This document shows, in pieces, positions 18,728 through 58,700 of a DNA stretch of 64,000 bases. Positions within the stretch are counted from its first letter, which is position 1. Every line of letters begins with the position of its first letter. Under the pieces are notes generated by a model. It was not told the origin of the DNA and searched no databases. It worked only from the letters and a program-made list of their open reading frames with translations. The position numbers were made by a program, and so were the translations under genes. Source of the stretch: an uncultured Pseudomonadota bacterium (GTDB taxonomy: Bacteria; Pseudomonadota; Gammaproteobacteria; Steroidobacterales; Steroidobacteraceae); NCBI GenBank assembly GCA_903838705.1, contig CAILZL010000028.1, positions 428 through 64,427 on the forward strand, in the 5' to 3' direction.

Positions 18728-19108
18728 TTACAAACGCATCAACACCGCAACCGCAACAATCAAGCCATGATCGTCGCTGAGCGTCAGGTGCCCTGCACCT
18801 GCCCCGAGCCTTGTGCAAGTGACCCGACCCGCGTCTGACCATATGATGTGCGGCCGGCCTGCTTTATCAGGCACATAGCCTGTATCCCGTATCCACATAC
18901 CCTCAACAAAGCCGGTACCCAGCGCCTTGACGATGGCTTCCTTTGCCGCCCAGTGCATGGCAAGAAATCTCGCTGGCCGGCTGCTGGTGCGAAACAGCGC
19001 CTCTTCTGCAGGTAATAACAGATGCTTAACCAGTCGCTGACCATGACGCTCATACATCTGTTCAAAGCGATCCAGTCTGACAATATCGGTACCGATCCCA
19101 TGAATCAC
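18728..19108 (-). CDS. acpS: Holo-[acyl-carrier-protein] synthase
   Basis: 126 aa. It has [12 protein letters not shown] and [12 protein letters not shown] motifs, and its start overlaps the pdxJ stop. Confidence 0.9.
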
Positions 19109-19881: not shown

Positions 19882-19886
19882 ATAGA

Positions 19887-20651: not shown

Positions 20652-20654
20652 TTA

Positions 20655-40210: not shown

Positions 40211-41474
40211 GACGCAATGCCCTAGCAGGTTCGGTACGTGCGGCACGCCATGCCGGATAGATTGTCGCTGATGCACACATGAGAAACGCCACACCCGCAA
40301 CCTGCCACACATCACCCCATTCCACCGCTGCGGGCAGATCACTCATGAAGTACAGCCGGGCATCCATGAATTTCACGCCCAGCAAATGCTCCAGACCATG
40401 AATCAGGCTTTCCAGATTCCATGACAGCAATGTGCCCAGTATGACGCCGCTGACAATGCCGATCAGTCCGATCATCATGCCCTGTGCAATAAAAATCCAC
40501 ATGATGCTGCGTGGTGTCGCACCCAGCGTTCGCAGAATCGCAATATCAGATTGCTTGTCCTTGACCACCATCACCAGCGTTGCAATGACATTGAATGCTG
40601 CTACCGCCACCACCAGCAACAGAATCAGAAACATCATGGATTTGGTCAGCGCGATGGAACGGAAAAAATTGGCATGTTTGCGGGTCCAGTCATCCACGTA
40701 GTATCCACCGCCCAGCTGCTGTGCAATGACGGTGGCACTGCGTTGAGCATTCAGCACATCCGCCAGCTTCAAACGCAGACCCGTGACCTCCGCACCCATC
40801 CGATACAGACGGGCGGCATCCTGCATGTGCACATAGGCATAGTTGCGATCGTATTCATACATGCCCACACCGAAGATGCCAACCACGGTGAAGCGTTTAC
40901 TGCGTGGAATCACACCCGCCACTGTCACACTGCCCTGTGATGTGACCGCCAGCACCCGATCACCCACCGACACTTTCAAGGTTTTCGCCAGCTCATCGCC
41001 CAGCACTATGCCGTACTCACCTTCATGCAGATTATTCAGCGAACCCTTCTGCATATGCTGATTCAGGCTGGCGACGGTTTCTTCTTCAGCTGGTATCACG
41101 CCGCGAATGACTGCCCCGCTGTTGCCATCGCCGGCAGCAACCGTGGTCAGCAACAAGGCCTGCTGTTCAATGAATGGGGCTGCGCCCAGCACACCGGGCT
41201 GACCCTGAATCTTCTGACGAACCTCCTGCCATTCAGCCAGCGGCCCGCCGAAGCCACTGATCGTAGCGTGTGCTGTCACACTCAGAATGCGCTCTCGCAA
41301 TTCGCGTTCAAAGCCATTCATCACTGACAGCACCACCAGCAACACCGCCACACCCAGCGCCACACCACTGAGTGAAATGCCGGAAATCACAGACAGGAAG
41401 CGATTGCCACCTGCCGAGCGCCCACTTGATAGCAAGTAGCGCATGCCGATCATCCATTCAAACGGCGCCTTCAT
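40203..41474 (-). CDS. Lipoprotein-releasing system permease (LolC/LolE family), second copy
   Basis: 423 aa. It has the MacB-like FtsX topology, the N-terminus [10 protein letters not shown], a large periplasmic loop, and a C-terminal FtsX domain ending in [15 protein letters not shown]. Confidence 0.85.
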
Positions 41475-41480
41475 CGCAGC

Positions 41481-42734
41481 CTACTCATAGCGCAATGCCT
41501 CTGCGGGTGCGATACGTGCCGCACGCCGGGCCGGATAAACCGTCGCCAGTGCGGTGAGCAACAATGCAACGCCCATCACCCACGCCACCTGTGCGGCGTG
41601 TACTTCGGATGGAATCTGCGTGATGTAGTACACCGTCGGATCAAAGAACCGCATACCGAAGGTATGTTCGATCCAGGGCACTATGCTGCTCACATTCAAT
41701 GCCAGCGTCAGTCCCAGCACCAGCCCGGCTACGATGCCGGCCCAGCCGATCAGCAATCCCTGAGTAATGAACACCTTGATCACTTCATCCGGTGTCAGCC
41801 CCAGCGTGCGCAGGATGGCAATGTCGTTGCGCTTTTCATTCACCACCATCACCAGTGCTGCGATGATGTTGAATGCAGCAATGGCCACGATCAGCATCAG
41901 CATCACCGCCATCATGGTTTTTTCTATGCGCACGGCGCGGAAATAACTGGCGTTCTCAATCGTCCAGTCGCTGGTGATGAACTTTCCACCAAGTGATTCA
42001 TTCACCTGACTGATCAGTTCCGGCGCAGAAAAAATATCCGCAAACCTCAAACGCAATCCTGTGGGTACATCGGCTCTGCCCGCCAGTGCGGCGGCATCAC
42101 TCAGATACAGCATGACCATGCTGTTATCCTGCTCCTGAGCTCCGAATTCAAAAATCCCGGTAATCGTAAAACTCTGTAAGCGCGGCCGCAGTTCGGTCGT
42201 GCCGGCCACCACCTCTGGAATCAACACCGTGATTTCGTCGCCCACCTGCGCTTGCAGTTGCCAGGCAAGGCCTGAGCCCATCAAGGCCGAGCGTGCACCG
42301 GGCGTGAGTGAATTCACCTGACCGCGCAACAGATGCGGCGCGATGTCGGCCACCTTCGATTCCTGCTCCGGCAAAATCCCGCGCAGCCTGGCCGATGCCA
42401 GCATGCCGCCGCGCCCCACCATACCCTGCATCTCCACATAGGGCGCGACACCGAGCACACCCGGCATTTTCTGAACTCTGGCAGCCAGTGCCGGCCACTC
42501 TGTCATCTGCGTTACGCTGCCGGAAAGCGTCGCATGGGCGGACAGATTCAGCAGTCGGCTACGCAACTCACCTTCAAACCCGTTCATCACCGACAGAATG
42601 ACAATCAGCGCCGCCACGCCCAGACACACACCCAGCATGGACACCCAGCTGATGAATGACACAAAAAAACCACGGCGGCGCGTTCGCACATAGCGCAGAC
42701 CGATGTAGGCAGGCAGGGGATAGAACATTCGCAA
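41481..42734 (-). CDS. Lipoprotein-releasing system permease (LolC/LolE family), first copy
   Basis: 417 aa and paralogous to the preceding feature (IGLRYVRTRRR, SVMNGFE, ILRTLG, YPARRAARI.PAEALRYE). Confidence 0.85.
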   Translation of the reverse strand: MRMFYPLPAYIGLRYVRTRRRGFFVSFISWVSMLGVCLGVAALIVILSVMNGFEGELRSRLLNLSAHATLSGSVTQMTEWPALAARVQKMPGVLGVAPYVEMQGMVGRGGMLASARLRGILPEQESKVADIAPHLLRGQVNSLTPGARSALMGSGLAWQLQAQVGDEITVLIPEVVAGTTELRPRLQSFTITGIFEFGAQEQDNSMVMLYLSDAAALAGRADVPTGLRLRFADIFSAPELISQVNESLGGKFITSDWTIENASYFRAVRIEKTMMAVMLMLIVAIAAFNIIAALVMVVNEKRNDIAILRTLGLTPDEVIKVFITQGLLIGWAGIVAGLVLGLTLALNVSSIVPWIEHTFGMRFFDPTVYYITQIPSEVHAAQVAWVMGVALLLTALATVYPARRAARIAPAEALRYE

Positions 42735-42901
42735 TCAGGCAACCGGCACAGAAAACCGGAAGACCGCAAACCTCCAGAGCAACAGGCGCAGGGATTTTAG
42801 TGATACCCGTCAGGGAAATACACGACTTAATCGCCCCGCCTGTCTGACACCGCATCCGCCGGTGCTATAGTTTGCGCGTACCACACGTCAGGAGATCGGT
42901 C

Positions 42902-43195
42902 ATGCGCCTTGCTCAAACTCTCACGCTGCTGCTCGCCAGCCTGACCTGCGTCGCTGCCGGGTCAGAAGATGTTGCCCTGCCCGCCAACAGGACAGAGACG
43001 GCCGCACCTTCCGGAACCGCAACGACTGTCACCACGCCGGCACGCGGTGCCAGCATGGCGCAGGTGGAAGCACAGTACGGCGCACCGACAGAACGTCATT
43101 CCGCCATCGGAAACCCGCCCATCACTCGTTGGGATTACCCTGGTTTCAGCGTCTTCTTCGAACACCAGCATGTGGTACACAGCGTGGTGCGCTGA
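42902..43195 (+). CDS. Small secreted/lipoprotein-like conserved hypothetical
   Basis: It has a GGAGA Shine-Dalgarno 8 nt before the ATG at 42902, a signal peptide MRLAQTLTLLLASLTCVAAG, and a conserved-looking C-terminus PPITRWDYPGFSVFFEHQHVVHSVV. Confidence 0.65.
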   Translation: MRLAQTLTLLLASLTCVAAGSEDVALPANRTETAAPSGTATTVTTPARGASMAQVEAQYGAPTERHSAIGNPPITRWDYPGFSVFFEHQHVVHSVVR

Positions 43196-43387
43196 AGCTG
43201 CTGTTGGTTGATTCCATTCGATATGAACGTAGTGAGGCTCATCAGCAACGGGCACTTCATATTCACCCATTCAGGCTGGCGCGTAAAATCAAAGCCATAT
43301 ATCAATGGGGCTCTTCAGAAGAAGTGGCCCTGACAATTTGAACAACAAAACGCGCCTCCTTGAATGATGCTTCGCGGTTAAGTTCCC

Positions 43388-43800
43388 TCAGCGAGCGTCA
43401 GCACAATTGAAGAACACGGAATCGGGCATGAGCTGGTCAAGTAACGCATGCTGACGACGGGTATTGTAGAACTGAAAGTGGCGTGTCACTCCGGCTTGCG
43501 TGGGGCTCGCGGTTTCTTAGGTACGCGGGTAGACTGCCTCGTACTTCACTAACTTGCTTAACCGTTCGACAAATACCTTGTCACCTCAATGACCTCTGCC
43601 ATACATCCTGATGCGGATGTCACGTTCCTTGAGCACGACGATGAACTCCAGCTTGGTGAACTGGCTGACCTGATCGGTGTTGAAAACCCCGGAACAACCA
43701 TATTTGGCCAGTACGTACTTCAACGCTTCGACACAGAAGTCCGTGGTCAATGTGTTCGACAGCCGCAAGGCGAGTACCTTATAGGTATACTTCGCAATTT
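43388..43800 (-). mobile_element. IS3-family (IS407-like) transposase orfB remnant: 5'-truncated integrase-core fragment with in-frame stops
   Basis: My minus-strand translation gives ...KVLALRLSNTLTTDFCVEALKYVLAKYGCSGVFNTDQVSQFTKLEFIVVLKERDIRIRMYGRGH*GDKVFVERLSKLVKYEAVYPRT*ETASPTQAGVTRHFQFYNTRRQHALLDQLMPDSVFF. This is the rve/DDE core and C-terminus of IS3 transposases. It has no N-terminal half and no orfA, and two internal stops interrupt the frame. Confidence 0.8.
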
Positions 43801-43916
43801 ATAGAGTAATGAATGCCATTAATCACCTGATTATAAATCGCAATAACAAAAGACTGTAGAAGCGGAGACCGACTGATGGGAGACGAACTCTGTTCGTTTC
43901 GGTCAATGGAAAAACG

Positions 43917-46900
43917 ATGACAACTGTGAATTTAGACTCTTCCGTGCTGACATCTGCGCTTGAACAGTTACGCCTCAAGCTCTTGGATCTCACCGGCCGA
44001 AATCGCCTGATTAATTTCAAGCATGCTGCTGGAAAATCACTTCAGTTCATAGAAGGTCAACCAGCGGCGATCTACAAGAGACTGGTCGAAGCAAATAACA
44101 AAGACAACATCAGCATCCTCGGGTTACCAGAACCCGCCAGAGGAGACTGGGTGGAGCGCAACGGTCGCTTGCAAAGACCCGACCCTCGGGAATGGGCCAA
44201 GTCTCAGGGGATCACAACAAGCTACGACATTCCTGTTGCCGGCGAGAGCTCTTATAACTCGAATGTCCGAACACTTATGTACCCCGACGATCTCGCGAAG
44301 CACTGCCGCAAGATTGAGCGTGAGGCCACGCTCGCTATTGAGGAAACGGGCGCAAACATGCTGTTCTTGGTGCTTGGATTCTTAGAATTTCCAGACCAGC
44401 GTGACAGCGACAAGACCTTCACTTCACCCTTGATCAGCGTCCCAGTGTCGTTGCAGAAAAAGGAAATCGCGGGTATCCAGCAATTTTCGCTCCAGTACAC
44501 AGACGATGATATCTCCGAGAACCTTTCTCTTCGAGAGAAACTTCGCAATGACTTCGGATTGATCTTGCCTGAACTCGCCGAAGAACAGATCGACGTAAAC
44601 GACTACTTCACCAAGATTCAGTCAATCATCAAGCAGCAACCTGGTTTCGCACTCAAGCATCGTGTTTCCTTGTGTTTGCTGAGCTTTAGCAACATGCTGT
44701 TGGTGAGAGACCTTGATCCGACCAAATGGCCATCAAACGGGGATGAAAACTCTCTCATTGACCATCCAATCGTCCGCGAGGTGTTCGAAGGCAGAGCCGA
44801 TAAAGGCGGAGCGGGACTCAGTTTGGCTGAGGAACATCTGGTGGAAGAAAGCCCTGGCGCCAGCATCCCATTGGTCTATGACGCTGATAGTTCTCAGCAC
44901 AGCGCCCTAATCGATGTCCTGTCGCTCAAGAAAAACCTAGTGATCGAAGGCCCACCGGGAACCGGCAAGTCTCAGACCATCACAAACCTGATCGCGGCCT
45001 GCCTTGCAGAAGGCAAGAAGGTGCTTTTCGTCGCCGAAAAGCTGGCTGCTCTTGAAGTCGTAAAAAACCGCCTGTCGCTGGCTGGCCTAGATCCGTTTGT
45101 TCTTGAGCTGCACAGTAACAAGACTAACAAGAAGCGAGTCTTAGAGGAAATTGCCAAGCGAACCGCCTTCAGGCCCAAATATCCAAATGATCTCCCCCGA
45201 TTGCAACAGCAGTTGGAGGCTCATCGCCAAGATCTCAAAGCCTACACAGACCTGATCAACTCCGTCGCTCACAACGCGTTTGGCTTAACGCTCCATCAGA
45301 TCATGTGGCGAGCTGAGAAACACCGCAAAGGTCTGAGCAACGACGAAGGCATGCTCAGCCAGATCAAAATCAGCGATGCAACGCAAATATCCGAATTCGA
45401 ATTCGGTCGTCGCATGGACTGTCTGGGGTATCTCGGGTCCCAATACAAGCTGGTTGGTGGCTTTGACGCAAGCAGCACCTTCTGGGGCTTCTACCCTGAA
45501 CGTCTGATTCCCGGAGATGAAGTTAGTCTCGCCAAGTTATTTGAGGCGGCTAATGGATGGTCTCGAACCTTTGTGGATGACGCGAAGCACTTCTCGCAAG
45601 TGCTCGGAGGCCAAGTCTACAACCTTTCACTGGCTTTCAGCGGCGATCAACTCACCGTACTGAAGAGTCTGCTCGAGACTGCCAATCAGCAGTTACCACT
45701 TCACCTCATCCCTGGTTTCTTTGAGGGTGATGAGACAGGAACTAAAGCGGCCCAGGCGATTGACGCATTCGCCAAACAGGTCGAGCAGTTCCATAGCCTT
45801 GCGGGATCCGTCAATACAGCCCTGAAGCTGGAGACCAGCGTTACTAAATCGGTCGCAGAAGATCTCAAGAGTCTGCAACGAATCGCTAGTAGCTTGGGCG
45901 CGGAACTGGGTACGCTCAACGATCTGCGCACCCTGCATCAGCACCTCGTTGAGGCTACTGGCAAACTCTCAACGGCTGATGCCAACCTGATCGGTTTCCT
46001 CAACGGAAAGGGCATCCCCTATGACGGATCAAAGCAGAAGCTAGAGCAGTTGCTCAGTTTTACCGATCTCGTGTTGGATGCACCTGAGGAGCACTTCCAT
46101 CTCCAAACCCCCGGACTGACTCACGATGGTGCAGTTCAGGCCATTGATCAGTTACTTTCTCTTCAAGGAGAATGGACCAACCTTGAAAAAGAACTCGGGG
46201 ACTCGCTCTATGTAGATGCCCTGCCGCATGAAGAAGACATCAAGCAAGCCATCCTAGCCCTGCGAGAAGGCGACACGTGGTATCGCATCTTTCAAAGCCA
46301 GTGGCGCAAAGCTGTAGGGTTGCATAAAGCACTCCAGCGCACCAAGATCAAGATACCAAGCCATAAGCGGCTGGAGCAGCTCGAGCAAATCGTCAAATTG
46401 CTGGGCCTTAAAGAGCAATGGAAGTCATCACCTACTTGGACGCAGTTCCTCAGCTTCCCTGCGCCAGCAATTCCCTCCCCGCTTGAGAAATATCTTGCTC
46501 TGGCGCTATGGAATCGTGGAATCAAGATCGCCTTTGAAGAAATTCAGACTGTACTGATCGACCCAATCAGCTTTACCGCCGACCAAGCCCGAGCGCTGCG
46601 CCGTGAATTCTCGATGGTCAAGCTGGAGATCACGACTGCAATCGCAGCCTGTAGCGACATAAATGAAAAGCTCAAACGCCTCACGGAATTCAACGGCAAC
46701 CATCTCATCGGCAAAACGCTCGAGAAGACAGGAGAGTTCACGAAAGCACTTCATGACCGATTCGAGTGGCTTGAGCTGGAGGCGCGGAGCCAGGCCACGT
46801 ACAGCCAAGTAATCACTGGATGCGATGCTGCCTTGGAGCGCTCGGCGATGAAATCGCAGATTCAAGCCAATACCCGCGTTAAGTCGCTCCTTGGCGATCT

Positions 46901-49370
46901 CTATCTGGACGTGGGCACAGACTGTTCAACCGCCCTCGAAGCGCTGTCCTTCGGTCAAAGTATCGATGGTCTCAACTTGTCGCCACAGATCAAGTACAAG
47001 CTGCGCACTGGGCATCCTCTTGAAGCCTGTCGAACTCTAGCAGCCGCGCTGGAGTCCGTTTGCACGGGGCTACAGCAGGTTGAGAGGTTGTGCAACTCCG
47101 TGTCTGAGTTTGGAAAACTTGAACTTGATACATGGACGGGCGCACCGGCAGACGAGGACTTGGAGGCATTTGCCAGCGCCCTGCATCGCTCAGTTCGACA
47201 GGCTATTCAGGATAAGGACCAGCTGATTCCCTGGTCGCTGTATTTGACCCGTCGCAAGGAAGCCTGTGAACTGACATTGGCCGAATTTGTGGATCTTCTC
47301 GAGAGAAAACGAGTCAGGCCCGACGAGTTGCAAGACGCCTATGCCTATTGCACTTACAGCACGATAACTCGCGAAGCCTTCCGGACCATTCCCCAACTGG
47401 GGCGGTTCACAGGACTCAAACACAACCAGATTCGCGATGAGTTCAAGCGGCTAGACAAGGAGATCACTGCTTTGCGAGGGAAAGCCATCGCCTACGAATG
47501 TGCCCGCAAGGCCTCTCCGACACCCGGCAGAAATGGTGCCCGCGTTGACGACCGAACTGAGATGGTTCTCTTGAATTATCTGATGCCTCAACAACGGCCA
47601 CGCATGCCCGTTCGGAAAATTCTGACCCGAGCGGGTCAATCGACCCAGGCACTCAAACCCTGCTTCATGATGGGTCCTCAAGCCGTGGCCCAATACCTAG
47701 CTCCAGGCGTCATCAAATTTGACCTCGTTATCATGGACGAAGCATCCCAGTTGAAGCCCGAGGAAGCTATCGGCTCGGTTGCACGCGGTGGTCAATTGGT
47801 AGTGGTCGGTGACCCCAAGCAGCTGCCCCCGACCTCGTTCTTCTCACGGATGTCTCAAGACGGTGACGGTGGTGACGATCACTTCACCACTACGGATGCC
47901 GAGAGCATCCTAGACGTCTGTTCATCGCATTTCAGGCCAACCCGCTCTTTGCGTTGGCACTATCGCTCACAGCACCATTCGCTGATCGCCTTCTCGAACC
48001 ACAGCTTCTACCGCGGCAATCTGGTGATTTTCCCCTCGCCTTATGGGCAAGGGGGCAAGCTAGGCGTTCGAGCTGTTTACTTGGCCGACGCCATCTACGA
48101 AAACCAAACAAATCTGCGCGAAGCCAAGCGGGCCGTGGACGCAGTCGTCGAGCACATTGCATCCCGCCCTAACGAGTCCCTTGGGATCGTAACGCTGAAC
48201 ATCAAGCAGCGTGACTTGATTGCCGAACTGCTGGAAGAGCGCCTTAAGTCTGCTCGGGGAGCGGACTCCTATCGAGATCACTGGGCTACGGAGGGGCAAC
48301 CCCTGTTCATCAAGAACCTTGAAAACGTCCAAGGTGACGAGCGAGACGCCATCATCATCTCAACGACATTTGGCAAGCCACCAGGTTCCAACGCTGTTCG
48401 CCAGAACTTCGGCCCTATCAGTCGACAAGGCGGGTGGAGACGACTGAACGTGCTTTTCACCCGTGCCAAGAAGTCAATAGCGCTTTACACGTCCCTGCGT
48501 CCAGAGGACATCGTGATGGATGGCACTACTCCGGACGGCACTAAGGCGCTTCGCAACTACCTCGAATACGCACGTACTGGTTTATTGACAACCCTCGAGG
48601 AAACGGATCGAGAACCAGACAGTGATTTCGAGATCACCGTCATGGACATGCTCAAACTGCGTGGCTACGAAGTCACGCCACAGCTAGGCGTAGCGGGCTA
48701 CCGCATCGACATTGCCGTAAAGCACCCTGACGCTCCCGGTTCCTATCTGGCAGCGGTAGAGTGCGACGGCGCTACCTACCACTCGGCCTTGTCAGTCCGT
48801 GATCGCGATCGCATCCGTCAAGAGATACTCGAGTCGCTCGGATGGCGTGGCCGTATTTGGCGTATTTGGTCAACAGACTGGTTCCGCACTCCACGACAAG
48901 AAACAGAGAAGCTCATCGGCTTCCTTGAGGATCTCCGAAAAAGCTGGAAACCCGAGCACGCTGCCGGAGAAGCTTGGATCGAAGAAGGGCAAGGTGCATG
49001 GCAACCTACTATTCGCATCACTAAGCAAGTTGAAACTGTTGAGAACACAGCTCAAGCCGAGATCGAGCGAGAGACGGTAAGCTCTGTACTGATCGACACA
49101 GAAGACGATTTGGAAATCGAGGTAGGAGATTTTGTTCGATATATTGATCTTGCACGCCCTAACGACGTTATGTCAGTCCAGATCACCAGAGGCAAAGACG
49201 ACTTTGCCAACGGGATTGTGAATGAAAGCCGTCCTCTAGCACAGGCAATACTCGGTGCCGTAGTCGGTGACGAGGTAGTGCTTCACCTTGCTGGAAGCGC
49301 ATCAAAGACGTTCCAAATCGTGGATATTAAGAGATCACGGGACATGCAACCTATAAGCGTCACGATATGA
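43917..49370 (+). CDS. 1817-aa DUF4011-like / Upf1-like SF1 helicase / Vsr-DUF559-like PD-(D/E)xK nuclease / GreA-GreB-C-terminal-like fusion protein (candidate Hhe-like defence helicase-nuclease)
   Basis: Single uninterrupted ORF. The N-terminus has LKLLDLTGRNRLINFKH and LFLVLGFLEF...SPLISVPVSL, which are DUF4011-like. The helicase motifs are Walker A GPPGTGKSQT (about aa 345), Walker B VIMDEASQ (about aa 1271), VVVGDPKQLPPT, RWHYRS, VQGDERDAIIIS and RLNVLFTRAKKS. The nuclease core is GYRIDIAV...AVECDGATYHS (about aa 1571-1676). The C-terminal VGDFVRY...NESRPLAQAILGAVVGDEVVL resembles the GreA/B C-terminal domain. Confidence 0.85.
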   Translation: MTTVNLDSSVLTSALEQLRLKLLDLTGRNRLINFKHAAGKSLQFIEGQPAAIYKRLVEANNKDNISILGLPEPARGDWVERNGRLQRPDPREWAKSQGITTSYDIPVAGESSYNSNVRTLMYPDDLAKHCRKIEREATLAIEETGANMLFLVLGFLEFPDQRDSDKTFTSPLISVPVSLQKKEIAGIQQFSLQYTDDDISENLSLREKLRNDFGLILPELAEEQIDVNDYFTKIQSIIKQQPGFALKHRVSLCLLSFSNMLLVRDLDPTKWPSNGDENSLIDHPIVREVFEGRADKGGAGLSLAEEHLVEESPGASIPLVYDADSSQHSALIDVLSLKKNLVIEGPPGTGKSQTITNLIAACLAEGKKVLFVAEKLAALEVVKNRLSLAGLDPFVLELHSNKTNKKRVLEEIAKRTAFRPKYPNDLPRLQQQLEAHRQDLKAYTDLINSVAHNAFGLTLHQIMWRAEKHRKGLSNDEGMLSQIKISDATQISEFEFGRRMDCLGYLGSQYKLVGGFDASSTFWGFYPERLIPGDEVSLAKLFEAANGWSRTFVDDAKHFSQVLGGQVYNLSLAFSGDQLTVLKSLLETANQQLPLHLIPGFFEGDETGTKAAQAIDAFAKQVEQFHSLAGSVNTALKLETSVTKSVAEDLKSLQRIASSLGAELGTLNDLRTLHQHLVEATGKLSTADANLIGFLNGKGIPYDGSKQKLEQLLSFTDLVLDAPEEHFHLQTPGLTHDGAVQAIDQLLSLQGEWTNLEKELGDSLYVDALPHEEDIKQAILALREGDTWYRIFQSQWRKAVGLHKALQRTKIKIPSHKRLEQLEQIVKLLGLKEQWKSSPTWTQFLSFPAPAIPSPLEKYLALALWNRGIKIAFEEIQTVLIDPISFTADQARALRREFSMVKLEITTAIAACSDINEKLKRLTEFNGNHLIGKTLEKTGEFTKALHDRFEWLELEARSQATYSQVITGCDAALERSAMKSQIQANTRVKSLLGDLYLDVGTDCSTALEALSFGQSIDGLNLSPQIKYKLRTGHPLEACRTLAAALESVCTGLQQVERLCNSVSEFGKLELDTWTGAPADEDLEAFASALHRSVRQAIQDKDQLIPWSLYLTRRKEACELTLAEFVDLLERKRVRPDELQDAYAYCTYSTITREAFRTIPQLGRFTGLKHNQIRDEFKRLDKEITALRGKAIAYECARKASPTPGRNGARVDDRTEMVLLNYLMPQQRPRMPVRKILTRAGQSTQALKPCFMMGPQAVAQYLAPGVIKFDLVIMDEASQLKPEEAIGSVARGGQLVVVGDPKQLPPTSFFSRMSQDGDGGDDHFTTTDAESILDVCSSHFRPTRSLRWHYRSQHHSLIAFSNHSFYRGNLVIFPSPYGQGGKLGVRAVYLADAIYENQTNLREAKRAVDAVVEHIASRPNESLGIVTLNIKQRDLIAELLEERLKSARGADSYRDHWATEGQPLFIKNLENVQGDERDAIIISTTFGKPPGSNAVRQNFGPISRQGGWRRLNVLFTRAKKSIALYTSLRPEDIVMDGTTPDGTKALRNYLEYARTGLLTTLEETDREPDSDFEITVMDMLKLRGYEVTPQLGVAGYRIDIAVKHPDAPGSYLAAVECDGATYHSALSVRDRDRIRQEILESLGWRGRIWRIWSTDWFRTPRQETEKLIGFLEDLRKSWKPEHAAGEAWIEEGQGAWQPTIRITKQVETVENTAQAEIERETVSSVLIDTEDDLEIEVGDFVRYIDLARPNDVMSVQITRGKDDFANGIVNESRPLAQAILGAVVGDEVVLHLAGSASKTFQIVDIKRSRDMQPISVTI

Positions 49371-49697
49371 TATTCAGGCCACAGCTCAGTCCAAATCAAA
49401 TCGGCTTAAATTACTGAAGGAAAGCGTCGTTTTTTACAAGCCAATATCTGAGCTCTGTAACTCCGGGTTCTAAAGTTCTGATCGGTGCGGTCATTTATGC
49501 GAGTTAGAAGCTGGGCACGTCCGAATGGCAGAATTCAAGACTCTTTTTCAGTAAATAAATGTCCCAGTCGTAAACTAGTCCGGAACTTCTATCCCGCCCC
49601 CCAGCCTGCTACCCTTCGCTCCCTTTGCATTCACCCCCGGCAAGTCAGCTGACTTGAGGCCGGGTTATTGGCATTTAAGAACCGGACTATCTGACTC

Positions 49698-52600
49698 TTG
49701 AGCAAGAAATTCCTTCTGCCTTCTGCTGAAAAGCCACGCGTACGCTGGGGCCAGCTGTATGGCTCTGCCATGGCGTTAAAACTGGCCGAGGCGGCACAGC
49801 AATTATCTGCGCCGCTGCTGGTGATTGCCGGCAACGCCCGCGAACTCAGCCGCCTTGAAGATGAGCTGCGGGTATTTCTGCCCGGGTCGGTGTCACTGCT
49901 GAGCCTGCCCGGCTGGGAAACCTTGCCCTATGATCAGTTTGCACCGCATCCGGACATTATTTCGCAGCGCCTGAGCACCCTGTCGCGTCTGCCGCATCTG
50001 AAACAGGGTGTGGTGCTGGTGGATGTGGATACGGTGATACAGCGATTGCCGCCCCGCAGCTATATCGAGGCACACGCCTTTGATATTGCGGTCGGTCATC
50101 AGCTGGAACTCCATTCGTTTCGCAACAAGCTGACAGCCGCAGGCTATGCGCATGTTTCGCAGGTTATGGCACCCGGCGAATTTGCAGTGCGCGGCTCGTT
50201 GCTGGATCTGTTCCCGATGGGCAGTGCGACACCTTATCGCATTGATCTGTTCGATGAAGAAGTGGAAAGCATCCGCAGCTTCGATGCCGACACACAACGC
50301 ACGCTGGAAAAGACGGAACACATTCATCTGCTGCCCGCACATGAGTTTCCGCTCAGTACCGAAGGCGTGCAGTTGTTCAAGCGGCAGTTCCGCACGCGCT
50401 TTGAAGGCGACCTGACCCGTGTGCCCATATACAAGGACGTGACCGAAGGCGCCGCACCAGCCGGCATTGAATACTACCTGCCGCTGTTCTTTGAACAGGT
50501 CAGCGAGATTTTCACTTATCTGCCCGCTGAGTCTGCTGTGGCCTGCACCGCTGAATTCAGTGGCCTGCTGGAAGAGTCGTGGAACTCCATTGTGATGCGT
50601 CACGAACAACGGGCGCATGATGTGGAACGTCCAATCCTGACTCCGCAAGAACTGTTCCTGCCACCTGCGGAATTTCTGGAGCAGCTGAACTCACGCCGAC
50701 AGATCGAACTGTTCGTCAATGAACTTGATCCGAACCGGCAGCATATTTCCTGGCAGAACTTTGACAGCACCACGCCCCCCCCCGTGAAACTGGATGCTCG
50801 CGCACCCGAACCGGCACGCGCCTTGCTGGATCATCTGCACACCTATCAGGGTCGCACTCTGATTGCTGCGGAGTCGACAGGACGCCGCGAAATGATACTG
50901 GATATTCTGCGCAAGCATCAGCTCAATGCACCCAGCATTGATGACTGGCAGCTGTTCATGAACAGCGAAATTCCGCTGGCCATTACTGTCTCGCCGATTG
51001 CACGCGGCCTGCAACTGAAAGACCCTGCGATCACGGTGCTGGCTGAAGAACAGCTGTTCGGTGAACGCGGCAGACAGGAGCGACGCCGCCGTCGTGCGGA
51101 TCGTGATCCGGAAAAAATTATTCGTGACCTGTCCGATCTGATGCCGGGTTCACCCGTGGTGCATGATGAATACGGCGTAGGCCGTTATCTGGGATTGCAG
51201 ACCATGGAAGCCGGCGGACTCATGGGCGAGTTTCTGGTGCTGGAATATGCCGATGGCGACAAGATTTATGTGCCGGTGCAATCTCTGGATCGGGTCAGTC
51301 GCTACACCGGTTCGGGTGGCGATAACGCGCCGCTACATAAACTCGGCACAGACACCTGGGCAAAGGCCAAGAAAAAAGCCGCGCAGAAAGTACGTGATAC
51401 GGCGGTGGAACTGCTCGACCTGTATGCACGCCGCGCGGCACGTCAGGGCACATCATTGCAAGCTGCTGATGCAGACATGCTGGCCTTTGCGGATGCGTTC
51501 CGCTTTGAAGAAACCCCGGATCAGGCTCAGGCCATTGCCGCCGTGGTTGAAGACATGCGCAGCGGCAAACCGATGGATCGCGTGGTGTGTGGTGATGTGG
51601 GTTTCGGTAAAACCGAAGTCGCGCTGCGTGCGGCATTCGTAGCGGTGCAAGCGGGCAAGCAGGTGGTGGTGCTGGTGCCCACCACACTGCTCGCACAACA
51701 GCACTACCAGACCTTTGCGGATCGCTTCGCAGACTGGCCGGTGAAAGTTGAGACCATGTCACGCTTCCGCACCACCGCGCAGGTGAATGAAGCGTTGAAG
51801 GGACTGGAAGCCGGCACGGTGGATATCGTGGTGGGTACGCATCGCCTGTTGCAGAGCTCGGTGCACTTCAAGAATCTGGGCTTGATCATCATCGACGAGG
51901 AACATCGCTTCGGTGTGAAGGACAAGGAAAAACTGAAACATCTGCGTGCAGAAGTGGATGTACTGACCCTGACCGCCACCCCCATTCCGCGTACTTTGAA
52001 CATGGCCATGGGTGGCCTGCGTGATCTGTCGCTGATCACCACACCGCCCTCTTCACGCCTCGCCATCAAAACCTTTGTCACGCCCTTCGATGGCACTGCG
52101 GTACGTGAAGCCTGTCTGCGCGAGATCCGACGTGGCGGCCAGATCTACTATGTTCACAACAGCGTGGACACCATCGAAAAGACCGCACGCATGCTCAGTG
52201 AGCTGGTGCCTGAATCCAATATCGCCATCGGTCACGGACAGATGCGTGAACGCGAACTGGAACAGGTGATGCTGGATTTCAGTCATCAACGTTGCAATCT
52301 GTTTGTCTGTACCACCATTGTAGAAAGCGGCATTGACGTGCCTACCGCCAACACCATCATCATTGATCGCGCCGATAAATTCGGTCTGGCACAGTTACAC
52401 CAGATGCGCGGTCGTGTGGGACGCTCACATCATCAGGCTTATGCCTACCTGCTCACGCCACCCAAGGCCAACATGACGCCGGATGCAATCAAGCGTCTGG
52501 AAGCCATCGAATCGCTGGAAGATCTTGGCGCTGGATTCACGCTGGCCACACATGACCTGGAAATCCGTGGTGCCGGTGAACTGCTGGGCGAAGGCCAGAG

Positions 52601-53192
52601 CGGCCAGATTCAGGAAATCGGTTTTGCGCTGTATATGGAAATGCTGGAACGCGCTGTCGAGGCGCTGAAACAGGGCAAGACGCCTGATCTTGATCAGCCG
52701 CTGCACCGTGGGCCGGAAGTTGATCTGCACGTACCCGCGCTGCTGCCTGAGGATTATATGCCTGATGTGCATATGCGGCTTGTGCTGTACAAACGCATTG
52801 CTGCGGCCGAGTCCACCGATGCGCTGCGCGATCTGCAAACGGAAATGATTGACCGGTTCGGACTGCTCACCGAAGCGGGCAAGAATCTGTTCCGGATTAC
52901 CGAGCTGAAACTGCGTGCCAAAGCCATCGGCATCCGCAAACTGGATCTGCACGCCAATGGTGGCTATGCCATGTTTGATAAAGATGCCAGCATCGATCCG
53001 ACCAACCTGATCCTGTTCGTGCAGCGTAATGCACGTACCCATAAATTTGATGGGCCACTGAAATTACGTTTCACCCTGCCACTTGAGCATCCCGAAGCCC
53101 GCTTCAAGGCTGCGGAAGATTTGCTGGATGGGATTACACTTGCGCCTGCGGCGATCGCTGCTGCAGCCATCGCCAAGAGCCGTAAAAACTGA
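49698..53192 (+). CDS. mfd: Transcription-repair coupling factor Mfd
   Basis: 1164 aa. It has a UvrB-homology N-terminus, an RNAP-interacting domain (VHDEYGVGRY), SF2 motifs (GDVGFGKTEVA, DEEHRFG, QLHQMRGRVGRS) and a TRG/CarD-like region. The ORF opens with TTG at 49698, and the first ATG is at 49767. Confidence 0.93.
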   Translation: MSKKFLLPSAEKPRVRWGQLYGSAMALKLAEAAQQLSAPLLVIAGNARELSRLEDELRVFLPGSVSLLSLPGWETLPYDQFAPHPDIISQRLSTLSRLPHLKQGVVLVDVDTVIQRLPPRSYIEAHAFDIAVGHQLELHSFRNKLTAAGYAHVSQVMAPGEFAVRGSLLDLFPMGSATPYRIDLFDEEVESIRSFDADTQRTLEKTEHIHLLPAHEFPLSTEGVQLFKRQFRTRFEGDLTRVPIYKDVTEGAAPAGIEYYLPLFFEQVSEIFTYLPAESAVACTAEFSGLLEESWNSIVMRHEQRAHDVERPILTPQELFLPPAEFLEQLNSRRQIELFVNELDPNRQHISWQNFDSTTPPPVKLDARAPEPARALLDHLHTYQGRTLIAAESTGRREMILDILRKHQLNAPSIDDWQLFMNSEIPLAITVSPIARGLQLKDPAITVLAEEQLFGERGRQERRRRRADRDPEKIIRDLSDLMPGSPVVHDEYGVGRYLGLQTMEAGGLMGEFLVLEYADGDKIYVPVQSLDRVSRYTGSGGDNAPLHKLGTDTWAKAKKKAAQKVRDTAVELLDLYARRAARQGTSLQAADADMLAFADAFRFEETPDQAQAIAAVVEDMRSGKPMDRVVCGDVGFGKTEVALRAAFVAVQAGKQVVVLVPTTLLAQQHYQTFADRFADWPVKVETMSRFRTTAQVNEALKGLEAGTVDIVVGTHRLLQSSVHFKNLGLIIIDEEHRFGVKDKEKLKHLRAEVDVLTLTATPIPRTLNMAMGGLRDLSLITTPPSSRLAIKTFVTPFDGTAVREACLREIRRGGQIYYVHNSVDTIEKTARMLSELVPESNIAIGHGQMRERELEQVMLDFSHQRCNLFVCTTIVESGIDVPTANTIIIDRADKFGLAQLHQMRGRVGRSHHQAYAYLLTPPKANMTPDAIKRLEAIESLEDLGAGFTLATHDLEIRGAGELLGEGQSGQIQEIGFALYMEMLERAVEALKQGKTPDLDQPLHRGPEVDLHVPALLPEDYMPDVHMRLVLYKRIAAAESTDALRDLQTEMIDRFGLLTEAGKNLFRITELKLRAKAIGIRKLDLHANGGYAMFDKDASIDPTNLILFVQRNARTHKFDGPLKLRFTLPLEHPEARFKAAEDLLDGITLAPAAIAAAAIAKSRKN

Positions 53193-53201
53193 GTCACCAC
53201 C

Positions 53202-54143
53202 ATGAATGATTTTCTCGTCGCTGCACTCTACAAATTCGTCTCGCTGCCTGACTGTAATGCGATGCGCGAACCTTTACAGGCATGCTGTGACCAGCACGGC
53301 GTGAAGGGCACTCTGCTGCTGGCGAATGAAGGCATCAATGGCACCATCGCCGGCACACATGCAGGCATCAAGGCCGTGCTTGCCTATCTGCGCAGCGATC
53401 CGCGTCTGGCCACACTTGAACACAAGGAATCGCTGGCACCCAGAATGCCGTTCAACCGCATGAAGGTGCGCGTAAAGAAAGAAATCGTCACCATGGGTGT
53501 GCCGGACATCGACCCGAACAAGATCGTCGGTACCTATATCAAGCCTGAAGACTGGAATGCGCTGATCAGTGACCCAGATGTCGTTCTGATTGATACCCGT
53601 AATGATTATGAAGTGGCCATCGGTACCTTCAAGGGTGCAATCGATCCCAACATCAAGAGTTTCCGGGAATTGCCGGGCTGGGTAAACGAACAGAAGATGC
53701 TGGAGAAAAAACCCAAGGTGGCCATGTTCTGCACCGGCGGTATTCGCTGCGAAAAATCCACTGCCTTCATGAAAGTGCAGGGCTTTGATGAGGTGTATCA
53801 CCTGCAGGGCGGGATTCTCAAATACCTTGAACAAATACCGGAAGAAAACAGCCTGTGGGAAGGCGAATGCTTCGTGTTCGACGAACGCGTGGCGGTAAAG
53901 CATGGCTTGCAGGTCGGTGAACATCAGTTGTGCCGCGCCTGTCGTGAGCCCATTGGCCCGCAGGACAAGCTCTCGCCACTGTTTGAACTGGGTGTCAGCT
54001 GCCCGCGCTGTCATGCGCATACCAGCGATGAAAAGAAACACCGGATGCGTGAACGCCAGAAACAGGTCGAGCTGGCAGCAGCCCGGCGCCAGCAACATGT
54101 GGGCGCCAAACATCCGCCCAAACGTAAAGCAGAGACACTGTAA
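53202..54143 (+). CDS. trhO: Rhodanese-domain tRNA uridine(34) hydroxylase TrhO (YceA/UPF0176)
   Basis: It has the N-terminus [10 protein letters not shown], a rhodanese active-site loop [10 protein letters not shown], and C-terminal Cys pairs (CRAC...CPRC). Confidence 0.82.
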
Positions 54144-54212
54144 CCACTGTGGTTACCCCCTGTTATCTGCTGTAATGTCCCAGATTGAATTCTGTTCTTT
54201 ACCCTAGAGTTG

Positions 54213-55742
54213 ATGATGAACAAGCCCCGTACTGCGATCACCCCCACCCGCGATGAAAACTACGCTGAGTGGTATCAACAGGTCATTCGCGCCGCCGATC
54301 TGGCAGAAAACTCTGCGGTGCGTGGTTGCATGGTGATCAAACCGTGGGGATATTCACTGTGGGAAAACATGCAGCGTGTGCTGGATGATGAATTCAAGGC
54401 TACCGGCCATCAGAACGCCTACTTTCCCCTGTTCATTCCGTTGTCTTTCCTGCAGAAAGAAGCCTCGCATGTCGATGGCTTTGCTACCGAATGTGCGGTG
54501 GTGACACATCATCGTCTTGAAAAGAATGCCGAAGGAAAACTGGTCCCGACCGGTGAGCTGGAAGAACCGCTGGTGGTGCGCCCCACTTCGGAAACCATCA
54601 TCGGCGATGCCTTTTCACGCTGGGTGCAGAGTTACCGCGACCTGCCCCTCCTGATTAACCAGTGGGCCAATGTGGTTCGCTGGGAAATGCGTACCCGTAT
54701 GTTCCTGCGTACCGCCGAATTTCTGTGGCAGGAAGGTCACACCGCCCATGCCACTCGCGATGAAGCTGTGACTGAAACCATGAAGATGCTGGATGTCTAT
54801 GCCGACTTTGCTGAAAACTATATGGCGATGCCCGTAATCAAGGGCGAGAAAACAGCCGGCGAACGCTTCCCCGGCGCAGAACAGACCTTTTGTATTGAAG
54901 CCATGATGCAGGATCGCAAGGCATTACAGGCCGGCACCAGTCATTTCCTTGGTCAGAATTTCGCCCGGGCCAGCGGCATTCAATTCCTTGATCAGAACGG
55001 CACACAACAACATGCCTGGACAACCAGCTGGGGCGTCTCCACCCGCCTGATCGGCGGCATGCTGATGACACACTCCGATGATGATGGACTGGTGCTGCCA
55101 CCGAAACTGGCACCCACCCATATCGTGATCATCCCCATCTATCGCAATGATGACGAACGCGCCAGAGTGCTGGAATACTGCAACAGCGTTGCAACGGAAC
55201 TGCGCAAAGAAACCTTTGCCGGGCGCAAGCTGAATGTGAATGTCGATAACCGTGATGAACGTGGCGGCGACAAGGTATGGCACTGGATCAAGAAAGGTGT
55301 ACCGTTACGCATTGAAGTCGGCCCGCGCGACATGGAAAAGAATGCGCTGTTCGTGGGACGACGCGATCAGGGCCATAAGGACAAGCTCAGCATTGATCGC
55401 AACGAGTTCATTTCCAGTGCTGCCGGTATTCTGCAAGGCGTCCACGACAACCTGCTGGCCAGAGCCAGAGCGCACCGCGCCGCTCATACGCGCAGCATTG
55501 ATACTCAGGAAGAGTTCTACGCTTACTTTACTCCGCCGCACACAGAAGCCAACCAGCCCACACCAATCCACGGCGGCTTCGCGATGACACATTTCTGTGG
55601 CGATGTTGAACTGGAAAAGAAGATCAAGAATGACCTGTCGGTCACTGTGCGTTGCATTCCACTGGAAACCACTGAACCGGGCACCTGTCCGTTCACAGGA
55701 AAACCCAGCCGCACCCGCGTGGTCTGGGCCAAGTCTTACTGA
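54213..55742 (+). CDS. proS: Proline--tRNA ligase, archaeal/eukaryote-like architecture (no INS editing domain, C-terminal Zn-binding-like domain ending in Tyr)
   Basis: It reads NYAEWYQQVIRAADL....VRGCMVIKPWGYSLWE, FRTAEFLWQEGHTAH, GTSHFLGQNF and a C-terminal ...RVVWAKSY. Its length of about 509 aa compares with about 570 aa for the INS-containing bacterial type. Confidence 0.88.
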   Translation: MMNKPRTAITPTRDENYAEWYQQVIRAADLAENSAVRGCMVIKPWGYSLWENMQRVLDDEFKATGHQNAYFPLFIPLSFLQKEASHVDGFATECAVVTHHRLEKNAEGKLVPTGELEEPLVVRPTSETIIGDAFSRWVQSYRDLPLLINQWANVVRWEMRTRMFLRTAEFLWQEGHTAHATRDEAVTETMKMLDVYADFAENYMAMPVIKGEKTAGERFPGAEQTFCIEAMMQDRKALQAGTSHFLGQNFARASGIQFLDQNGTQQHAWTTSWGVSTRLIGGMLMTHSDDDGLVLPPKLAPTHIVIIPIYRNDDERARVLEYCNSVATELRKETFAGRKLNVNVDNRDERGGDKVWHWIKKGVPLRIEVGPRDMEKNALFVGRRDQGHKDKLSIDRNEFISSAAGILQGVHDNLLARARAHRAAHTRSIDTQEEFYAYFTPPHTEANQPTPIHGGFAMTHFCGDVELEKKIKNDLSVTVRCIPLETTEPGTCPFTGKPSRTRVVWAKSY

Positions 55743-55764: not shown

Positions 55765-55790
55765 GGCAGGCCACTCAGCCTGCCTCTTTT
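55765..55790 (+). terminator. Rho-independent terminator after proS (hairpin overlaps the hrpA stop codon)
   Basis: GGCAGGC-cactca-GCCTGCC is followed by TCTTTT. It lies between convergent proS and hrpA. Confidence 0.65.
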
Positions 55791-58700
55791 CGCGCCCGCT
55801 CAAGTTGCTCAGCCAGACGCTTGGCTGAAACAGGCATAAGGGTCTTCAATTCCTGAGCGAACAGGGAAACACGGAATTCCTCGATCATCCATTTCAGCCT
55901 GACCAACTCGATCTGCACCAGCGACTTGCGTGCCACCAACTGCTGATACTCTTTCATAAACGGCTGTAACTGCTGCATCAGACTGGCATCACGCGTCACA
56001 TTACCAGCCAGTTTTTCGACCCGACGTGCCAGCGCCTTAAGGTATCGGGGTAAATAGCCGAACCAGGGTGGCGGAATGCTCTGCAGGAAATCACCAGACA
56101 CCAGACCATTCAGCTGCTGTTCGATATCCGTTCTTGCAGTTGCAAACGCGGGCGCATTCAATCTGGAAACGGCCTGCCTGATCGTATGCAGATCCCTGAA
56201 CATGCTCAGCATACTTTCCGTCATCCTGACCACTGACGAATTCAACTCAGTACGACGTGCATCAAGCAGCTGATTGAAATCCTCAACCGATCGAGGCACT
56301 GACTGATTTTCCGGTAAGAAACATTCACGGAATACGCGCTCGGACAAACTATCTGCCAGATGTTTGCTGCCCGACAACCCATGCCCCAGCAACATCAGCT
56401 CTCGATTGGATGAGAACTGCTGACGGGCAAACTTATATTGCTGCGGCAACGCCAGCACCAGCAGGCGTAATACGCCAAGACGCATGACCTCCCCGGCCTG
56501 CTCAGGGCTACTGAACTCAACCAGCTTGACATGATCCTGATGATCCATGATTGCCGGATACACTTTGTAGCTCACACCATGACGCTGTGCCACACGCACT
56601 TCAGGCACTGAACCAAATGACCAGCTCCGGTATTGATCATCAGGAGATGCACCAGCAGGCAGAATGGACTCACTGACCGCACCAGAGTGATGAGCCTCCC
56701 GGATCAACGTTCGTAAATCCCGCCCCTGCGCCACCACTTTGCCTTTGGCATTCTGAACACAGAAATACGGATTGAGATACGGCGGAACTGACAACGCATT
56801 CAATTCATCAAGGGTAAAGGCTGTTCCACTGATCCTGGTTATCCAGCGTACCAGCGCCAATGAAATATCAGACTGATGCGACACCTCCTGCAAGGCCTGC
56901 TCAGCAAACCTGGGAACGGGCAAAAAAATCTTGCGTAGCGACTTCGGCAATGCGCGCAGGATTTCCGTTATCCGTTCCAGCCGCCAGCCCGGCACACACC
57001 AGCTCAGCCGGGCTTGATCAAGGGAAACCAGCAACGGTGCCGGAACCACAATCGTCACACCGTCATCCTCATCTGCCGGTTCAAACTTGTAATGCAACGG
57101 CAGCTGATTTCCCCCCACATCAATACAAGCAGGATATTCAGAAAGATTAAAATCATTCAAATCTCTCTGCGCGACATCTTCAATTGTCATTCTCAGGTGC
57201 TGAGCACTCAGGCGTTGCTCGCGTAGCCAGCCATTCAATGCAGTTGCCGAGTGAATGTGTTCAGGCAAATGCCGCAAATAGAAATCAACCTGAGACTGTT
57301 CAGTAATGAGCACATCCCTGCGCCGGATTTTTGCCTCCAGCGACTCGACCTGTTTAATGACTGACCGGTTGTGATCAATAAAATCGGCCTTGATATCGGA
57401 CTGCCCTTCCACCAGCGCAGCACGCACAAAAATCTCACGCGCCTGCTCCGGCTCAACGCTGGCATAGTTCACCCGACGACCGGCCGAAAGAATCAGCCCG
57501 TACAACGAAGTGCTTTGCAACGCAGCAACGAATCCTCTTCTGGCTTCCCATGTGGGTTCGCTGTAGCTTCGTTTTAGCAAGTGCGCTGCTACCGATTCGA
57601 TCCACTCGGGCTCGATCGCCGCCACCATGCGCGCATACATACGATTGGTTTCCACAAGACTGGCCGCCACCACCCACTTCGGTGGCTTGCTGGCCAAAGG
57701 TGTACCCGGTGCAACCACGAAACGGGTACCTCGTGCACCCAGATACTCCCGATTTTCTTCAAGCGTACCAATGCCTCCTAAAAAACCGGACAGAATCGCC
57801 TGATGCAGATCGGCAAAGTTGGCTTCGGCCTGATTGGATTTGAGCCCCAGCTCATCAATGGCTTCACGCAACTGACTGTGCACTTCCTGCCATTCGCGCA
57901 CTCGAACAAAGGACAGAAATTCCTCGCGGCACCACTTACGCAACTGATTGCCGGAAATCGACTCAACTGTTTCATGAAAACGCCGCCACAAACTCAGCAC
58001 CGTCATAAAGTCGGATCGCGCATCTGCATACGAAGCATGATGCTGATCCGCTTTTTGCTGTGCATCCTGAGGGCGCTCACGCGGGTCCTGAATCGAAAGA
58101 AATGCAGCCACCACCAGCATTTCACGCAGGCAACGGTGATGCCCTGCAGCGATCAGCATCCGTGCCAGACGCGGATCCAGCGGCAGGGTCGCAATCTGCT
58201 TTCCCAGACTCGTGATCTGGCGATTTGCATCGACTGCTTTTAATTCCTGCAACAACCGATACCCGTCATTGATGGCCTTCAGCTCAGGGGCATCCACAAA
58301 TGGAAAAGATAAAGGGTCAGATAACCCGGCCGAGGCAAGTTTCAGAATGACGCTGGCCTGATTTGTTCTTAACAACTCTGGTGCAGTGAATTCATCACGC
58401 GCTTCAAAATCAGCTTCATCGTACAGACGAATGCAGATACCTGCTGCAACACGCCCGCACCGGCCTTTGCGCTGATCAGCATTCGCTCTGGCGATTTTCT
58501 CAATGTGCAGACGTTGCACCTTGTTGCGCACACTGTAGCGACTGATGCGTGCCAGTCCTGAATCCACGACATACCTGATCCCCGGTACGGTCAGCGAGGT
58601 TTCAGCCACATTGGTGGACAGCACAATGCGACGTCCCGTGTGTCTGGCAAAGATCTTTTCCTGGTCACCCACGGACAGGCGCGCATATAACGGTAGAATT

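Follow-up and report, generated by a model that had tools for sequence, protein, structure and literature searches.

A stretch of 64,000 nucleotides from an uncultured bacterium of the Steroidobacteraceae (contig CAILZL010000028.1; referred to below as the window) carries a large helicase-nuclease gene whose product appeared to end in a domain resembling the C-terminal domain of the transcription factors GreA and GreB and which lies next to mfd. These features raised the question of whether the tail is a genuine Gre domain, what a domain that docks on RNA polymerase (RNAP) could do for such an enzyme and whether the proximity of mfd has any meaning. The gene is a complete open reading frame (ORF) of 1817 amino acids (aa) at positions 43917..49370 on the + strand, as defined by the ORF list and its translation, and its product can be described as an Hhe-like, single-protein helicase-nuclease of the PADLOC PDC-S37 type with a GreA/GreB C-terminal (Gre-C) tail. 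Translation of positions 49122-49370 (+ strand) gave exactly the peptide singled out in the first-pass annotation of this DNA, and this peptide terminates at the stop codon of the ORF. The best overall explanation, to which we assigned a probability of roughly 0.55, was that this is an acquired defense helicase-nuclease of the Hhe superfamily in which a variable C-terminal targeting slot has been filled by Gre-C.

The Pfam profile for the GreA/GreB C-terminal domain (PF01272) matched aa 1734-1805, with positions 6-76 of its 77 aligned. The last 156 aa searched alone scored 28.8 bits (E = 1.2e-6), which is above the gathering cutoff of 26.9 bits, and the whole protein scored 23.6 bits (E = 5e-5), which is under it. 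As this sequence match was marginal when taken alone, the assignment was subjected to three further tests utilizing the relatives, a reciprocal profile and a predicted structure. The tails of relatives scored 25 to 71 bits on PF01272, including 45 bits for Dyella, 36 to 41 bits for relatives of 1265 aa and 2098 aa and 71 bits for a fragment with two Gre-C domains in tandem (P0207), and the NCBIfam GreA models aligned to aa 1714-1805 of the window protein (E = 2.6e-5 to 1e-3) from model positions 57-67 on. A reciprocal profile (A4), made from 23 diverse tails with Gre factors excluded, was searched against 177,635 PDB sequences and detected E. coli GreA as the best match (1grj, residues 85-155; E = 4.8e-5), followed by Rnk (E = 0.0086) and then Gfh1 (E of ~0.01). 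The last 117 residues were modeled with AlphaFold2, which gave a pLDDT of ~90 across aa 1731-1805 and a predicted beta-beta-beta-alpha-beta-beta topology. When this model was compared with the PDB by Foldseek, the top 14 matches were all GreA, GreB, Gfh1, Rnk or a Nitrosomonas Gre homologue (probability, 1.00; rmsd, 1.5-2.7 A across ~75 columns), and FKBP and trigger factor appeared later in the list with E values of >0.06. Since PF01272, the reciprocal profile and the predicted fold agree, the segment at aa 1731-1805 (positions 49107..49331, + strand) is almost certainly a genuine GreA/GreB C-terminal domain with an FKBP-like fold, and the domain assignment of the first-pass annotation is borne out.

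An alternative is that chance or low complexity produced the resemblance and that the tail does not form a genuine domain. The whole-protein score below the gathering cutoff would be in keeping with this, as would two null results against the PDB: a single-sequence phmmer search with the tail found no Gre factor and returned only a weak match to the Cdc48 N-domain (E = 0.063), and a narrow profile built from the tails of close relatives (A1) gave no matches. This reading was rejected on the basis of the confident AlphaFold2 model, the exclusively Gre-family top matches in Foldseek and the recovery of GreA by the reciprocal profile; with the isolated tail and those of relatives scoring as high as described above, and with the signs of selection described below, a chance resemblance is extremely improbable.

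The Gre-C tail is under purifying selection. Values of dN/dS, computed against the two relatives for which dS in the tail could be estimated (L009 and L019), were 0.07-0.10 for the Gre-C domain, 0.07-0.08 for the whole gene and 0.17-0.32 for the linker that precedes the domain. The motif PLAQxLLGAxVG[DE]xV was kept in relatives down to a tail identity of 28-45%. An alignment of the tails with E. coli GreA and GreB was nearly gap-free. The GreA sequence used is consistent with the PDB alignment and with the residue numbers in PMC7527559. In this alignment GreA residues P125, G132, L130, S124 and S121 correspond to P1773, G1780, I1778, R1772 and N1769, respectively, of the window protein. P1773 was invariant among relatives, and the helix and following strand (PLAQxLLGAxVGD) formed the best-conserved segment of the tail and aligned without gaps to GreA residues 125-138.

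The linker itself (aa ~1669-1730; positions 48921..49106, + strand) is acidic, poorly conserved and predicted to be disordered, with a pLDDT of <50 over residues 1-22 of the model query. A segment of it, VSSVLID, in the region of aa 1714-1735 (nucleotides ~49056-49121), resembles SNAQVID of GreA (residues 70-76). Because of this likeness and because the alignments to GreA models begin at model positions 57-67, the captured piece of a Gre factor may have taken in the interdomain linker along with the end of the coiled coil, in a region where model confidence is low. GreA_GreB_N was unmatched in a Pfam scan of the 1817-aa protein, as were TPR, PIN and effector-associated domains and an amyloid motif.

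The part of the protein that precedes the linker (all features on the + strand) had the layout of a helicase-nuclease. An N-terminal DUF4011 domain (PF13195, 123.8 bits; aa 21-209, positions 43977..44543) is followed by superfamily 1 (SF1) helicase domain 1A with the Walker A sequence GPPGTGKSQTI (aa ~325-393, positions 44889..45095; matches to AAA_11, AAA_30 and AAA_19). A helical insert of ~850 aa after domain 1A splits the SF1 helicase, and the remaining motifs, II to VI, of a Upf1/IGHMBP2-like type (DEASQ, VGDxKQLPP, RWHYRS, QGDERD and RRLNVLFTRA) lie at aa 1267-1522 (positions 47715..48482; matches to AAA_11 and AAA_12). An MTES_1575 nuclease of the restriction endonuclease fold, which is Vsr/DUF559-like (PF18741, 117 bits; aa 1571-1668, positions 48627..48920), carries the motifs ECDGAxYHS and RDRDR. 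In an alignment of 10 sequences that included true Hhe proteins and Gre-tailed proteins, the Walker A residues G345-N357 and the motif columns of the second helicase part and of the nuclease were invariant, and no invariant column was found after residue 1673. As every family-invariant helicase and nuclease motif is kept in the window protein, the helicase-nuclease looks catalytically competent from its sequence.

The relationship of this protein to the antiphage protein Hhe was evident from profile searches. The score on the NCBIfam model Hhe_antiphage (NF042953), which has an equivalog cutoff of 2000 bits, was 1365.9 bits, with an alignment that stopped at model position 1718 of 1797, while the NCBIfam ProA model gave 1080 bits against a cutoff of 1500. 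The best PADLOC model was the candidate PDC-S37, with 1189 bits in three stretches, the best of which aligned aa 958-1717 to profile positions 637-1377 of 1550; this model is without a curated cutoff. The PADLOC Hhe model gave 890 bits. As controls, true Hhe proteins of Piscirickettsia and Marinomonas, which are 33-34% identical to the window protein, scored 2597 bits over the full NCBIfam Hhe model, and Gre-tailed relatives from Collimonas and Dyella scored ~1300 bits. The difference between the true Hhe and Gre-tailed groups sits precisely in the tail. The two groups share a collinear arrangement over ~1700 residues of DUF4011, a split SF1 helicase with a long insert and an MTES_1575 nuclease, together with invariant catalytic motifs and the character of single-gene systems of defense islands; they differ in having only 32-34% identity and in the replacement of the helical, possibly HRDC-like Hhe tail (model positions 1719-1797) by Gre-C. 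Owing to its score under the cutoff and its different tail, the window protein is, on this sequence evidence, not an Hhe equivalog and is best described as a sister of Hhe, a Gre-C-tailed variant of the Hhe/MTES_1575 kind. Hhe itself is reportedly to be credited to Gao et al. 2020. A second point of comparison is the group of MTES_1575/DUF3320 helicase-nucleases (Anantharaman et al. 2013, PMC3710099), which also combine an SF1 helicase, an MTES_1575 Vsr-like endonuclease and a small C-terminal module. The prototype in that study differs in having transglutaminase and HEPN domains and two winged helix-turn-helix (wHTH) domains (DUF3320), whereas the window protein is without DUF3320.

The first-pass annotation had suggested that the tail may be a novel fusion, and this did not hold. 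A full-length search detected 7999 homologues; the best 120 of these were ~1806 aa long and 78-99% identical to the window protein, a precomputed PF01272 match was present in most of them and many were already flagged by their IMG product names. The Gre-tailed architecture was found in >100 protein clusters at 78-99% identity. In a survey of loci on one-genome-per-species contigs, the tail profile was present at the extreme C terminus in 47 of 76 loci across several phyla, with hosts that included Burkholderiales, Rhodocyclaceae, Acidithiobacillus, Lysobacterales, Acidobacteriota, Bdellovibrio, Chitinophagaceae and Nitrospiraceae. These results indicated that the fusion is old, widespread and visible to automated annotation and is not peculiar to the source genome. 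When the tail profile was searched against 1.84 billion representative proteins, 213 matches were obtained at E <= 1e-3. All of 20 sampled matches had PF01272, which followed MTES_1575 wherever enough N-terminal sequence exists, and no canonical Gre factor was present among the best 150 matches, which were helicase-nuclease tails only. Among the sampled matches, therefore, the Gre-C tail is confined to the helicase-nuclease lineage. As far as our searches found, the Gre-C-tailed variant is known to databases and lacks a description in the literature: no paper describing a fusion of DUF4011/Hhe to Gre-C was encountered in searches that did not include ProA on its own, and there was no paper naming PDC-S37 and none on the mechanism of Hhe.

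Other branches of the family do end differently, in partial agreement with the first-pass annotation, which named DUF3320 as the usual C-terminal domain. Gre-C and DUF3320 coexist, in that order, in three relatives (P0283, P0276 and P0277), however, and the two are therefore not simple alternatives. DUF3320 is a wHTH domain described in MTES_1575-type proteins (PMC3710099). The true Hhe proteins have a conserved helical tail of ~100 residues with the pattern LLRPAM..L..FKP.SK.EFLE..P.YLR....G.YLEQVLNII (L077 12933-13322, L065 13038-13427, L054 12879-13268 and similar loci). True Hhe tails gave no match to DUF3320 or any other Pfam entry, with a weak hint of HRDC (E = 0.023) in one sequence, and may, judging from sequence, represent an undescribed nucleic-acid-binding module. 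A short protein of 203 aa (P0026), encoded on nine contigs, joins the first ~115 residues, the DUF4011 N terminus, straight to Gre-C; it looks as if it derives from the 1800-aa gene by an internal deletion, and it recurs across several assemblies.

The genomic context of the relatives is mobile and of the defense island type. A BrxR-like WYL regulator, detected by tblastn, lies directly upstream of the relatives' genes in 12 loci and in L001; type I restriction-modification (R-M) genes lie downstream in ~6 loci, and a type I R-M operon or its HsdM_N remnant comes after the gene in several; and the relatives sit in integrase islands with GmrSD, HEPN/MNT and BrnT nearby. On this guilt by association (the BrxR-like regulator, type I R-M, integrase islands and GmrSD), a role in defense is probable for the clade. 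The persistence of the operon or of HsdM_N fragments beside the gene suggests that type I R-M and the helicase-nuclease once belonged to a single ancestral operon. The type I R-M operon of Zwartia vadi is complete (hsdM, hsdS and hsdR) and, with GmrSD, comes after the Gre-tailed gene, whose stop codon is overlapped by hsdM. The stretches recorded were 13418-20212 in L004/L023, ~15240-21440 in L007, L009 and L019 and those directly after the gene in L001-L003. Several loci other than that of Z. vadi retain a 59-aa HsdM_N fragment alone after the gene, and L002/L003 have one before it as well. A remnant of HsdM was sought downstream of the gene in the window and none was found, in contrast to the relatives.

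The window gene shared 85-88% identity with its counterparts in Burkholderiales, Rhodocyclaceae and Acidithiobacillus. Recent transfer was considered as the cause of this identity across classes and was withdrawn, as whole-gene dS was ~1; the identity reflects an incongruent phylogeny under strong purifying selection, that is, constraint and not recent spread. Horizontal acquisition of the helicase-nuclease was nevertheless the best explanation. The window Mfd is <=79% identical to that of any genome in the collection, with the best matches in Steroidobacteraceae and other Gammaproteobacteria, as against 85-88% for the helicase-nuclease across classes; the 5' half of the helicase-nuclease gene has a GC content of ~0.51, compared with 0.56-0.58 for the flanks; and a remnant of an insertion sequence lies upstream. 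This remnant is an IS3-type transposase with an integrase core and in-frame stops (positions 43390..43790, - strand; rve_3, 27.9 bits, and rve, 25.3 bits), which is immediately upstream of the gene and marks the left side of the insertion. The last upstream stretch homologous to relatives, of 128 bp (positions 43789..43916, + strand), was 80-81% identical by blastn to positions 7872-7999 of L007, L012, L019 and L024, where it comprises the 3' end of the BrxR-like WYL regulator gene and the spacer downstream. The rest of that gene is missing in the window, and the IS3 event appears to have removed most of it. A scan for promoters upstream was uninformative (one promoter-like site versus 0.9 expected), a terminator scan found none after the helicase-nuclease gene, and a search for direct or inverted repeats flanking the insertion of ~6.5 kb detected short matches at chance level only.

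The mfd gene (positions 49698..53192) starts 328 bp downstream of the helicase-nuclease gene on the same strand. This arrangement could point to a housekeeping gene whose product works with Mfd in transcription-coupled repair, with the Gre-C tail and the adjacency both stemming from a shared pathway, and one further locus, L024, from an unrelated lineage (Betaproteobacteria bacterium MS502-43), has mfd ~5 kb away. Synteny contradicted this partnership, which was rejected. No homologue of the helicase-nuclease was present at any of 80 mfd loci from related genomes. A small ORF (107 aa; positions 42872..43195, + strand), with no Pfam match and an N terminus resembling a signal peptide, is conserved in the interval between lolC and mfd in ~22 related gammaproteobacterial genomes and hence marks the ancestral empty site. 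In ~20 of the 80 loci lolC, the small gene and mfd adjoin one another, the last two being only ~120-450 bp apart; in the window ~6.5 kb (positions 43196-49697) separates these two. The arrangement of lolC, small gene, insert and mfd was common only to a 99%-identical metagenomic contig of the same species, which was also the only one of 81 loci with a homologue at which mfd adjoins the gene. In L024, mfd (18354-21434, - strand) is on the opposite strand with ORFs between, and its proximity could be due to chance or to the neighborhood of mfd being a hotspot for islands. Together with the integrase and defense islands of the relatives and the insertion sequence remnant beside the window gene, these results make a function as an Mfd partner very improbable. 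The adjacency is an accident of insertion, in agreement with its provisional treatment as a coincidence in the first-pass annotation, and for the source window the outcome is a mobile defense gene that came to rest next to mfd, with no partnership between the two.

The proposed role of the tail follows the known behavior of Gre domains. The Gre-C domain, tethered by ~60 residues of flexible acidic linker, would dock on the beta-prime rim helices at the secondary channel of RNAP in the manner of Gre factors, Gfh1, Rnk and HelD. Docking would carry the enzyme to transcribed (invader) DNA or would allow it to sense RNAP that had been stalled, modified or shut off by a phage, and the ATP-driven helicase and Vsr-like nuclease would then attack DNA. 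The beta-prime rim helices are universally conserved, which fits with movement of the gene from one bacterial class to another. GreB binds these helices with high affinity through its globular domain (PMC7749165; for Gre factors see also PMC7527559), and in the TPR-GreA/B-C-PIN systems the proposed role of GreA/B-C is that of a module or sensor that engages RNAP (Kaur et al. 2021, PMC8195603). In Agp, the substitutions S628L and L634P in the GreA/B-C domain abolish defense against T5 (bioRxiv 10.1101/2024.11.07.622273). By analogy with these systems, docking of the tail on RNAP was given about an even chance, and we were less sure of the mechanistic details beyond docking.

Comparison with known proteins located the similarities and differences. 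Like the TPR-GreA/B-C-PIN systems, including Agp/Bab, the window protein would be a defense protein in which Gre-C, without the coiled coil, stands beside a nuclease; the partners are TPR and a PIN RNase in those systems and an SF1 helicase and a Vsr-like DNase here. HelD (PMC7749165) similarly fuses an SF1 (UvrD-like) NTPase to a Gre-like module for the RNAP secondary channel, a function that is predicted here, and in Foldseek the tail model weakly matched the HelD chain of a complex with RNAP (6wvk_H; E = 0.074). HelD differs in having a whole Gre-like region at the N terminus with a long coiled coil inserted into the channel, in lacking a nuclease and in acting in RNAP recycling, whereas the window protein has the globular domain only, at the C terminus, plus a nuclease. 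With GreA, GreB, Gfh1 and Rnk the tail shares the C-terminal globular domain by motif and fold, but it is one module of an 1817-aa enzyme and is without the acidic-tip coiled coil (D41 and E44 in GreA). Because the N-terminal coiled coil is absent, the window protein is not a Gre factor and, from its sequence, is without a transcript-cleavage or anti-cleavage function.

Several observations weigh against an RNAP-targeted member of the Hhe superfamily. GreA seems to need both its N- and its C-terminal domain for specific binding to RNAP (PMC7527559), so that an isolated Gre-C may bind weakly. The equivalents of two GreA serines vary: N1769 (S121 in GreA, where S121P lowers RNAP binding; PMC7527559) is S, A or G in relatives, and R1772 (S124 in GreA) is T, S, D, H or K. 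The slot need not target RNAP, given that sister branches fill it with modules of a nucleic-acid-binding type, DUF3320/wHTH or an HRDC-like helical tail. Furthermore, the Gre-tailed clade falls below the NCBIfam cutoff for Hhe (1365.9 versus 2000 bits), and expression of the window gene is uncertain because neither the BrxR-like regulator nor any native promoter is intact.

The variable serine equivalents and the DNA-binding-type tails of the sister branches could also indicate that the FKBP-like fold of Gre-C has been reused for a partner other than RNAP, such as a phage protein, a nucleic acid, components of the adjacent type I R-M or BrxR-like genes or the protein's own helicase or nuclease, for which it would act as an autoinhibitory lid. 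The absence of canonical Gre factors from the best 150 matches of the tail profile, which marks a separate, long-diverged subfamily, and the occurrence of the fold in FKBP and trigger-factor binding modules are consistent with such reuse. In opposition to this, all of the solved structures matched by Foldseek at E <= 0.014 are binders of the RNAP secondary channel, the most conserved segment of the tail is the one that aligns without gaps to GreA 125-138, and the spread between classes is better explained by a universal host target than by a ligand specific to a phage. Reuse for another partner was consequently judged unlikely, though deserving of weight.

The hints found on how Hhe-type helicase-nucleases recognize infection are genetic only: genes of T7 class II, among them the RNAP inhibitor gene 2, behave as triggers (bioRxiv 10.1101/2024.10.10.617714). 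The preferred reading, a helicase-nuclease with Gre-C in its targeting slot, provides a concrete, testable hypothesis in which the C-terminal module sets the mode of sensing or targeting and RNAP is the target in the Gre-tailed clade. A well-populated sister clade of Hhe bears a Gre domain of the RNAP-docking type instead of the tail of Hhe itself, and this would constitute a second, independent architecture for the published idea that GreA/B-C serves as an RNAP-directed sensor in bacterial immunity. A more specific and tentative proposal, which we regard as possible but somewhat doubtful, is transcription-coupled restriction, in which this widely transferred Hhe-like clade would park its helicase-nuclease on the secondary-channel rim of host RNAP through Gre-C and detect foreign DNA or infection through the state of the transcribing or phage-hijacked polymerase. 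If true, the mechanism proposed for TPR-GreA/B-C-PIN systems would have a DNA-targeting counterpart here, and the tails of the Hhe family (Gre-C, DUF3320/wHTH and HRDC-like) would be interchangeable sensor modules.

Two minor features of the locus were also recorded. The protein ends in a 12-residue C-terminal extension, RSRDMQPISVTI (positions 49332..49367, + strand), which has a low pLDDT and, in the tail alignment, is lineage specific and unlike the ends of the relatives; nucleotide homology to relatives detected by blastn ends before position 49300. The surrounding housekeeping genes, at 55775-59662 (- strand), 53202-55742 (+ strand) and 39497-42734 (- strand), are consistent with a chromosomal core region and comprise an hrpA-like DEAH helicase gene with DUF3418, a UPF0176/rhodanese protein gene, proS and lolC/lolE/lolD-type ABC transporter genes.

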